Sequence record: PP925824.1
Origin: Escherichia phage Chuche
DNA: 34,514 nt
Direction: 5' to 3' (one strand)
The position numbers and the translations under genes were made by a program. Of this stretch, positions 1,088-6,823 are shown one piece after another; position 1 is the first letter of the stretch, and the number at the start of each line of letters is the position of its first letter. Below the pieces are notes generated by a model. It saw nothing but the letters and a program-made list of their open reading frames with translations. It was not told where the DNA came from and made no database searches.

Positions 1088-1582
1088 TCAGAACAGTCCT
1101 TTAACAGAACTGGCCGCCCCGTTAAGAGACGATGTCACCTTATCTTTGAAGCCTGACAGCATATCGCTGAACGATGAGGATTGCAGGCGCTCCCGCAAAT
1201 CCTCATCACAGCGTTCAAGGGTCAGGGAAAACTCTATTTTTTTCGCTTTCCCGTAGCGATCCAGCTCAGAGCGGGTCGTGCTCGTTTCAGTCAGAACATA
1301 CATGCCGTAAATCTGCCCGACACCATCAATCAGAGGCCAGGGACGTCCTGTATACGCCTGCGTGGTCAGCAGCGACAAAGACACTTCGCCACCTGTAATT
1401 TCAGGATAAAGCACACCGGAAAGAACGATGCGATCATCACCTGCACCGATATACTGCCAGCTCGCTGAACGGTTAACGCGTTCATTTTTCACATGCCGCC
1501 AGCTTTTGTTTTGCTGTAACTGCTGATGCGGCAATGTGCGCAGCTCAAAAACAAACATGCCATAGATCATCATCATGACCAT
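1088..1582 (-). CDS. U: Tail protein U (P2 gpU-like)
   Basis: 164 aa; N-terminus MVMMMIYGMFVFELRTLPHQQLQ and VLSGVLYPEITGG resemble P2 gpU; directly follows the tape measure gene. Confidence 0.8.
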   Translation of the reverse strand: MVMMMIYGMFVFELRTLPHQQLQQNKSWRHVKNERVNRSASWQYIGAGDDRIVLSGVLYPEITGGEVSLSLLTTQAYTGRPWPLIDGVGQIYGMYVLTETSTTRSELDRYGKAKKIEFSLTLERCDEDLRERLQSSSFSDMLSGFKDKVTSSLNGAASSVKGLF

Positions 1583-1588
1583 GACTCC

Positions 1589-5482: not shown

Positions 5483-6666
5483 CAGACACCTCCCAACACC
5501 GCAAATGCGGGCTCAAAGTATTCATCAGTAAACGTCTGGTAAAGCTCCATATCTTCCAGCGGGGGAACGGGCGTATATTTGTAGCGAATACGCACGCGCC
5601 CCTGTCGCAATTCTGTGGTGCTGTTATCCACGATGTCATACCAGCACGATGCGCCAATCAGTTTCCCGGCAGTAACCAGCGAATCAAGTTTTGCCCTCAT
5701 AGCGCTGATAACATCCTTCACGTTCGCAGGCGTCAGTGGACTGTCGATGGTTTCAAACTGCGCTTCCGCAACCGTGTCAGCCAGCACCTGTGCGGTTCGG
5801 GTATACACCTCAAAAATGTAGGCGTTCGTTTCCGGCGTACGGTTACCCCAGAAGCGGAACCCGTTGCGGCGAATGATGGTTGTGATTTCTTTGTTGTTGA
5901 GGCTGTTGGCATCGCTGTCATCAGCCTGCAACGACCAGAACACATGCCTGGACATCCCCAGCACATTTTTGACCGGAACGTTGGACAGCGATTTGTGCCA
6001 GCCCTGCTCATGGTCAATGTACGCACGAAGGCCGCACGCGTAGGCAGGCGCGGGGAAAACCTCATTCTCGCCACTTTTCGGGTTGTAAGCGATGAAGTCC
6101 GGCCACAGGAGCATCAGCTCGCGTTCGTTGAATTTTTCACGGTACGCAATGGCTTCAGCCATCGTGTTGCAGCCGTGACATGAGGCATATACAAACGCGC
6201 GCAGTTTACCTGCAATCACGCACAGGGATTTGGTCACCGCCTCCGTATCCAGGCCCGGCGCAGCCAGAATACGCGGACGGTACCCAATGCTTTCATCCTG
6301 CTCTGCAACAAGCAGCGCATACATCCCCGTATAGCTGCCGTCGGATTCAGAACCACCGATAACCAGTTGATCCTGTGTTTTTCCGTCTTCTTCTTTGTGT
6401 TCAGCCACGCGAACCACAATCACTTTTGTGCTCACCTGGTCTGCAATGGGTTTTAGCGCACGGTAAAGCGTCCCCGTTGTCCCGCATTTTCCCAGCACGT
6501 CATTGACGCGGGTCACTAATGCGGGCTTGTTCAGCGGGAACAGCTTCGCGTCCGCATCGTCCGCCGTTGCCACGATACCGATAACACTGGAATCAACGTC
6601 GTTAATTGCTGTTACCAGGTCGGTACTTTCCGTAACGCGGGCGCCATGAAAGCGAGTTTCACTCAT
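5482..6666 (-). CDS. FI: Contractile tail sheath protein FI
   Basis: 394 aa; size and sequence character of P2 gpFI sheath; precedes FII. Confidence 0.9.
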   Translation of the reverse strand: MSETRFHGARVTESTDLVTAINDVDSSVIGIVATADDADAKLFPLNKPALVTRVNDVLGKCGTTGTLYRALKPIADQVSTKVIVVRVAEHKEEDGKTQDQLVIGGSESDGSYTGMYALLVAEQDESIGYRPRILAAPGLDTEAVTKSLCVIAGKLRAFVYASCHGCNTMAEAIAYREKFNERELMLLWPDFIAYNPKSGENEVFPAPAYACGLRAYIDHEQGWHKSLSNVPVKNVLGMSRHVFWSLQADDSDANSLNNKEITTIIRRNGFRFWGNRTPETNAYIFEVYTRTAQVLADTVAEAQFETIDSPLTPANVKDVISAMRAKLDSLVTAGKLIGASCWYDIVDNSTTELRQGRVRIRYKYTPVPPLEDMELYQTFTDEYFEPAFAVLGGV

Positions 6667-6823
6667 AGTTCCAGCCCCTTGTATCCGTTAAATGATTCGG
6701 CAAGAATCATCCCCCACCACGCGCGTAATCTCATCCCTGCGCCGTTCTTGCCGCCCGGCGACAACAAAAAGCAGTAACCCCGCCCGCACACACATGCGAC
6801 CATGCCGCACAGGGAGGGAACAG

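Follow-up and report, generated by a model that had tools for sequence, protein, structure and literature searches.

In bacteriophage P2, the tail genes FI through D are co-oriented in one operon: in the reference record (NC_001895), everything from FI to ogr lies on one strand, a single F operon is annotated, and its promoter, pF, serves FI through D. U abuts D directly, U ending and D starting at position 22791. The P2 late promoters carry the motif TGT-N12-ACA (PMC3931495). The P2 record also contains a divergent pair of late promoters, pP and pO, served by one activator site; their annotated transcription start sites, 3016 and 3127, lie 55.5 bp to each side of the centre of TGT-N12-CCA at 3063-3080. 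Here we consider the corresponding tail block of Escherichia phage Chuche (sequence record PP925824.1; the window, that is, the whole stretch analysed, is 34,514 nucleotides long). In an earlier sequence-only reading, FI-U were placed on the minus strand and D-ogr on the plus strand, and the departure from P2 was ascribed either to a genuine inversion of about 6.7 kb or to an assembly or scaffolding artefact. We find that the divergent order is not peculiar to the window but is the norm of a P88/SEN4-type lineage of P2-like phages, that it almost certainly descends from one old inversion, and that FI and D probably share a two-way late promoter.

Gene identities and strands were taken from a map of open reading frames (ORFs) and from Pfam and PHROGs scans of the window (Table 1). 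The strands described earlier are borne out by Pfam, PHROGs, the alignment of gpD (the D product) and the sequence itself: FI through U are on the minus strand and D is on the plus strand, diverging across 157 bp, and a P2-type single FI-to-D transcription unit is absent. Within the block, the genes and their internal order are those of the P2 F operon, with the E/E' frameshift site, ogr following D and an Ogr-type site upstream of FI all retained. The P2-type slippery heptamer, T TTT TTG, lies at 4601-4595, where a -1 frameshift leads from E into the E' frame and yields a product, E+E', covering 4383-4915. The translation start of T is probably the ATG at 4396, judging from the length annotated in P88 and from the sequence. 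The start of D is set at 6824, although its frame is open from 6692, because the alignments with P2 and P88 gpD (52% and 99% identity, both from Met1) begin at the methionine there. The four cysteines of the translated ogr product are spaced CX2CX24CX4C. Elsewhere in the window, P, O, R, S, V, H, G, int and the repressor have PHROG matches; for Q, N, M, L, W, J and I, the assignment relies only on where the ORFs lie and how long they are. P2-type late genes, an Ogr-family activator and an integrase/repressor region are thus all present, as in P2-like Peduoviridae, and in its gene content, E/E' frameshift, Ogr-family activator and type of activator site, the other respects tested, Chuche is P2-like. 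The inverted block extends from 1088 to about 6755, or some 5.6-5.7 kb, which makes the earlier figure too large by about 1 kb.

The phage belongs among relatives of P88. Positions 1-12000 align with P88 at 94.6% identity over 64%, and positions 12001-34514 at 96.5% over 79%; against P88-like phages overall, nucleotide identity is 93-97% across a shared 64-80%. The first 12 kb matches the Xuanwuvirus phages P884B11, P88, PhiR44_2, Citrobacter PhiSM, 500465-2 and 520873 at 93-95%, and every one of these matches spans the FI/D junction unbroken. By the ICTV guideline, which asks for about 70% or more nucleotide similarity over the genome together with the same architecture, assignment to Xuanwuvirus is borderline: coverage multiplied by identity is about 71%, which is not a VIRIDIC value, and the architecture is identical. 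As a P88-like phage of the P2 family (Xuanwuvirus-type), Chuche has the gene order standard for the P88/SEN4-type lineage. In P88 and P884B11, U, T, E', E, FII and FI are annotated on one strand, and D and the ogr homologue on the other; the gap between FI and D is 157 bp in both phages, as it is in two genome loci. The window differs from these relatives beside U, where they have a DNA invertase and an invertible tail-fibre segment and it carries a low-GC cargo ORF unrelated to these. Both P88 and PhiSM can be induced and form plaques (PMC5285337, PMC6456863), and the divergent arrangement is therefore compatible with a working tail.

The comparison with P2-like relatives that the earlier reading had proposed shows how widespread the arrangement is. 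It is annotated in Salmonella phage SEN4 (Senquatrovirus) and is found by tblastn in Klebsiella phages of Reginaelenavirus and Reipivirus, which with Xuanwuvirus (P88) makes four ICTV genera, and the same contiguous junction occurs in at least ten phage records sequenced independently. In SEN4, Reginaelenavirus and Reipivirus, the inverted FI-U block diverges from D across a gap with a single T[GC]T-N12-ACA, as in the window, but the identity of D is no more than 63-73%, the regions for cargo and immunity are different, and D-ogr is annotated differently in SEN4. Of 5426 complete E. coli genomes, 1358, among them UTI89 and UMNK88, match a 901-bp query across the junction (6300-7200) without a break; by E. 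coli records, the divergent junction is unbroken in 1360 of 1387.

Beyond E. coli, one genome per GTDB species was scanned by D-protein alignment, giving 80 loci, and in each of these FI, FII, T, U, D and ogr were placed by tblastn within 10-kb flanks. FI adjoins D and diverges from it in 48 loci, and these comprise every locus with a D at least about 61% identical to that of the window. They come from about 20 genera (Salmonella, Trabulsiella, Symbiopectobacterium, Edwardsiella, Serratia, Erwinia, Enterobacter, Pantoea, Kosakonia, Citrobacter, Pectobacterium, Brenneria, Izhakiella, Klebsiella, Xenorhabdus, Photorhabdus, Providencia, Rouxiella, Dryocola, Hafnia, Morganella and Yersinia). The P2-type order is found in 31 loci, with D at most about 54% identical to that of the window (23 with FI through D co-oriented and eight in which U abuts D at a contig edge), and a single locus was assigned to neither orientation class. 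One surveyed assembly is labelled "Vagococcus sp. WN89Y" (NZ_JBQPOM010000071.1, a 226-kb contig; locus L005) and carries an enterobacterial prophage with D 98% and FI 94% identical; the Gram-positive label on such an assembly suggests contamination or mislabelling. The inversion goes without comment in the papers on P88, on P2-like diversity (2026), on SEN4 and on the C. rodentium prophages, subscription-only literature being outside this search, and a paper on Xenorhabdus tailocins describes inversions of tail fibres and nothing else inverted; a keyword search brought up phage papers on unrelated subjects only.

The distribution of the two orders points to a simple history. In a tree of D proteins, the 51 divergent tips group in a single clade, from which collinear members are absent; the tree is a simple neighbour-joining tree rooted on phiCTX and has no bootstrap support, which counts somewhat against the weight that it can bear. 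The more distant P2-like phages Pseudomonas phiCTX and Mannheimia PHL101 are collinear, as is P2. Because the divergent loci form one clade while P2, phiCTX and PHL101 share the other order, a single old inversion that was then fixed is the reading favoured by parsimony, and it is almost certain that the segment from pF and FI to U was inverted once, in the ancestor of the clade. A segment of about 5.7 kb carrying pF, FI, FII, E/E', T and U would have been flipped once in an ancestor of these P2-like phages of Enterobacterales, whereas D and ogr would have kept their original orientation, and D would thereby have been cut loose from the F operon.

Such an event raises the question of how D is transcribed. 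Since nothing upstream of D reads toward it after the inversion, D needs a promoter within the 157 bp. The earlier reading had drawn the same consequence, and conserved promoter-like elements do face D in the gap. The gap contains a sole Ogr-type activator site, TCT-N12-ACA, which is one mismatch from the P2 consensus. When the FI/D gaps of relatives are stacked without gaps and anchored on the T[GC]T-N12-ACA site, 47 of the 49 distinct intergenic sequences contain this motif, 45 of them at the homologous central position. On the FI strand, a GAxxAT hexamer at -43.5 to -48.5 from the site centre is conserved in the inverted and collinear clades alike. On the D strand, 23 non-redundant loci from the inverted clade share TGn-xAxxAT at +40.5 to +48.5; the hexamer of this element, at +43.5 to +48.5, mirrors that of pF. 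In a control stack of 16 non-redundant collinear loci of the P2 type, the FI-side hexamer is kept and the far side is without any conservation, so the D-facing element is specific to the inverted clade. Ahead of D there is a Shine-Dalgarno sequence, GGGAGGG, at 6812-6818. Transcription is predicted to start near 6699 on the minus strand and near 6810 on the plus, at a distance of 55.5 bp from the site centre in both cases. A scan of 600-8400 for the sigma-70 consensus found nothing in the FI/D gap, and its total count was at the level of shuffled sequence; the lack of a consensus is expected, because P2 late promoters are activator-dependent.

Some further features of these gaps may be mentioned. 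Two open frames on the plus strand, 6646-6777 and 6692-6823, cross the control region, and P88 and many E. coli genomes have a 43-aa "hypothetical protein" annotated there; in SEN4, a hypothetical protein is annotated in the gap on the other strand. These ORFs within the promoter region look like annotation artefacts. In two Providencia loci (L031 and L039), T[GC]T-N12-ACA is replaced by a perfect palindrome, GGTTCTCAT-N6-ATGAGAACC (TCT-N12-AGA), which hints that activator and site specificity have co-evolved. In loci L029-L049, which are the clade's more distant members (Xenorhabdus, Photorhabdus, Hafnia and SEN4-type Salmonella), an extra conserved motif, TTGTC-N4-7-CGCGCG, stands between the site and the D-side -10 element.

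The divergent P/O (terminase/scaffold) region of the same genome offers an internal comparison. The window has only one other exact match to TCT-N12-ACAACA, at 22863-22883, and it falls in that region. It is flanked by the -10-like TAATCT at 22828-22823 on the minus strand and TGc-CATCAT at 22913-22921 on the plus strand, in the same geometry as at FI/D. The two gaps are of similar length (157 bp for FI/D and 154 bp for P/O), and each has one site, with -10-like hexamers at about ±44-49. The start of O is probably the ATG at 22953, which encodes "MA.." like P2 gpO, whose gene starts ATGGCAAAAAAAG. Left half-sites agree between the two regions within a genome, being TCT in both in the window and in Kp4850-1, and TGT in both in Kp4872-3 and SEN4. 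Both P2 pP/pO and the FI/D region of the window have a single dyad site midway between starts about 55.5 bp to each side, although the P2 starts are annotated and those of the window are predicted, and the half-site is TCT in the window and TGT in P2. Furthermore, P2 pO lacks the TGn extension that the rightward promoters of the window possess. P2 has intergenic room for a separate pV promoter, whereas the window has none; R, S and V (27764-29437) abut or overlap there, S ending at 28859 and V starting at 28856. Perhaps the genes from O to G are transcribed as a single long late operon; if so, no late promoters would remain besides the two divergent control regions.

It may therefore be useful to consider a model in which the inversion, by carrying pF with it, would have placed the dyad-symmetric Ogr-binding site directly upstream of D. 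Beyond this site, a -10 element facing D would now sit at the mirror-image distance, and one Ogr-bound site would activate promoters placed back to back, pF to transcribe FI-U leftward and pD to transcribe D-ogr rightward. A candidate cognate activator of the Ogr/Delta zinc-finger family is encoded by the phage itself, adjoining D, and transcription from the FI/D gap would depend on Ogr binding. On the elements described above, a shared, two-way Ogr-dependent late promoter for FI and D is modestly favoured. The wider suggestion, that the dyad symmetry of the Ogr site allowed the essential tail operon to be split and flipped with late regulation kept, and that ogr gained direct positive feedback in the process, stands only slightly above even. 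As a whole, an inherited, fixed inversion with a shared two-way Ogr late promoter is the best explanation of the locus, and a likely one.

Several points weigh against the shared promoter. The left half-site is TCT and not the P2 consensus TGT. By estimate, chance alone would put a T[GC]T-N12-ACA in about a tenth of all 157-bp regions, and the best 25-nt match between the FI/D and P/O regions (TTCTnGCCGn7ACAACAAAA), at 17 of 25 positions, was equalled in 33 of 300 shuffles. The predicted leader of D is only about 14 nt long, and the D-side -10, given its TGn extension, could do without an activator. In SEN4 (L084), the sole TGT-N12-ACA of the P/O gap, at 3039-3056, is 55 bp from the annotated start codon of P, which misfits the simple geometry; either the P mRNA is leaderless or the start is mis-annotated. 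The 25-bp resemblance, not significant by itself, was dropped as independent evidence. Because the pattern is short and raw similarity is non-significant, the case for the promoter rests on position and conservation.

Extended -10 promoters can function without a -35 element or an activator. A different model of D expression can be built on this, in which the inversion is fixed but D and ogr are driven by an activator-independent promoter (TGcGACCAT or another), and the Ogr site serves FI only. The TGn motif before the D-side hexamer would suit such a promoter, and the pF site of P2 acts one way only. However, the D-side hexamer lies exactly at the mirror distance from the dyad centre, with a spacing held in 23 diverged loci, and in these genomes the rightward pO, too, carries a TGn-xAxxAT, spaced about equally far from the site that belongs to pO. 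D is also a structural tail gene, and should be made late with FI-U. An activator-independent promoter for D is thus unlikely.

Other models concern the origin of the reversed block and not its expression. P2-like genomes are mosaic around the tail-fibre/cargo region that adjoins the block, and a foreign FI-U module could in principle have been acquired by recombination and inserted in reverse, with no inversion in place. A module of separate origin sits poorly with the divergence from P2, which is alike inside and outside the block (FI 46%, D 49-52%, P 44% and O 36% identity), with the way in which FI, FII, U and D broadly lose identity to the window together across the clade, and with the content and order within the block, which are exactly those of P2. 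Acquisition of this kind is improbable.

It is less probable still, to the point of being very doubtful, that the block is a phase-variable segment flipped by a site-specific invertase, as in the neighbouring tail-fibre switch of P88. P88-like relatives do have a gene for a Hin/Gin-type DNA invertase directly beside the 3' end of U, and reversed phage tail genes adjoining an invertase gene recall the Hin/Gin/Cin tail-fibre segments. Unlike those segments, the window has neither crossover-site repeats nor an invertase at the position beside U, and one orientation only is observed, in all 51 clade members of the D tree. A repeat search, suggested in the sequence-only reading, found no inverted repeats linking about 1040-1087 with about 6667-6823, only short matches of 14-27 nt in coding regions, and crossover-site repeats are thus missing from both ends of the block. 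With neither flanking inverted repeats nor an alternative orientation, the block is no active switch. The invertase that adjoins U in P88-like relatives, which belongs to the tail-fibre switch, was also considered as the cause of the inversion and rejected, since in most non-E. coli members of the clade, SEN4 included, the spacing between G and U leaves no room for one.

Of the two explanations offered at the outset, the inversion stands, in an evolutionary sense and relative to P2; the artefact, an FI-U contig joined in the wrong orientation, has nothing for it except the departure from P2 and a negligible probability, as the junction is identical and contiguous in the 1358 complete E. coli genomes and present in the ten or more phage records, in SEN4 and the Klebsiella phages (four genera in all) and in 48 loci of other species' genomes, and the conserved regulatory elements of the gap make sense in the divergent orientation only.

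The left end of the block is marked by a symmetric hairpin. As described earlier, U is followed by this terminator and then by a cargo gene, which is low in GC; similarity to relatives starts at about 1040, at the terminator, and the hairpin is the left boundary of the conserved inverted block. The cargo ("moron") ORF and 766-1040 occupy the slot that in P88-like relatives is taken by the DNA invertase and alternative tail-fibre segment. This is the usual P2-like cargo slot, and the P2 record has fun(Z) at the equivalent place. Searches of the ORF against Pfam, NCBIfam, PADLOC and PDB sequences gave no match, leaving the PHROG label alone; it is 83% identical in nucleotide sequence to a hypothetical gene on E. 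coli plasmids, where its relatives sit beside IS21 and an FkbM methyltransferase.

A hok/gef-type toxin locus (8260-8632, with an ORF at 8429-8566 on the plus strand) follows closely downstream of ogr. Its identity to the Hok/Gef region found in many Stx-converting phages is 83%, and in P88 it carries the label "MokW-like host killing"; no Rfam family scored over threshold there, and neither Rfam nor tRNA scans of the entire window returned a hit. Between this locus and the integrase is a cargo-type N6/N4 DNA methyltransferase gene (PF01555, 8945-9736, plus strand). A sigma-70-like match, GTAACA-18-GATAAT, occurs at 7796-7825 on the plus strand, inside the 3' end of D and about 150 nt before ogr, in a scan whose total was at chance; it could be the counterpart of the early ogr promoter found between D and ogr in P2.

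Table 1. Features of the tail block, the FI/D control region and the P/O comparator in the window (a dot marks features without an assigned strand).
Feature	Position	Strand	Basis or detail
Cargo ("moron") ORF, 244 aa	31-765	-	GC about 0.40; phrog_1962, labelled glycosyltransferase
Symmetric hairpin terminator at U 3' end (A-run/13-bp stem/T-run)	1048-1079	.	Terminator scan, inverted repeat, sequence
Tail protein U	1088-1582	-	PF06995 Phage_P2_GpU, E=9e-39; phrog_76
Tape measure protein T	1589-4432 (longest ORF)	-	PF10145; phrog_28
E' frame	4383-4619	-	PF06528 GpE
Tail chaperone E	4547-4915	-	phrog_103
Tail tube protein FII	4970-5482	-	PF04985, E=7e-46
Tail sheath protein FI	5482-6666	-	PF04984, PF22671, PF17482; phrog_23
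Divergent FI/D control region	6667-6823	.	157 bp, from sequence
-10-like hexamer GATGAT, FI operon promoter pF	6706-6711	-	-43.5 to -48.5 from site centre
Ogr-type activator site TCT-N12-ACA	6746-6763 (centre 6754.5)	.	Sole such site in the 157-bp gap
Extended -10-like TGc-GACCAT facing D, inferred pD	6795-6803	+	+40.5 to +48.5 from site centre
Tail/baseplate hub protein D	6824-7933	+	PF05954
Ogr/Delta-family zinc-finger late activator ogr	7976-8236	+	PF04606, E=5e-14
Second TCT-N12-ACA site	22863-22880	.	Divergent P/O (terminase/scaffold) region

The inversion is plainly visible in public annotations, and it should for this reason come as a small surprise to specialists; some modest novelty may lie in the survey across the clade and in the promoter model. 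For those who annotate P2-like prophages, opposite orientations of FI-U and D are not to be flagged as a misassembly. As a synapomorphy, the divergent order reliably sets apart a very common lineage, which about a quarter of complete E. coli genomes contain, and it could be used as a rapid marker for classification within the Peduoviridae. The inverted block also amounts to a natural experiment, in which late-gene regulation has survived the splitting of an operon. If the model of a shared promoter is true, the FI/D region would be a second two-way late promoter of the pP/pO kind, and an example of how a symmetric activator site may ease the rearrangement of phage operons.

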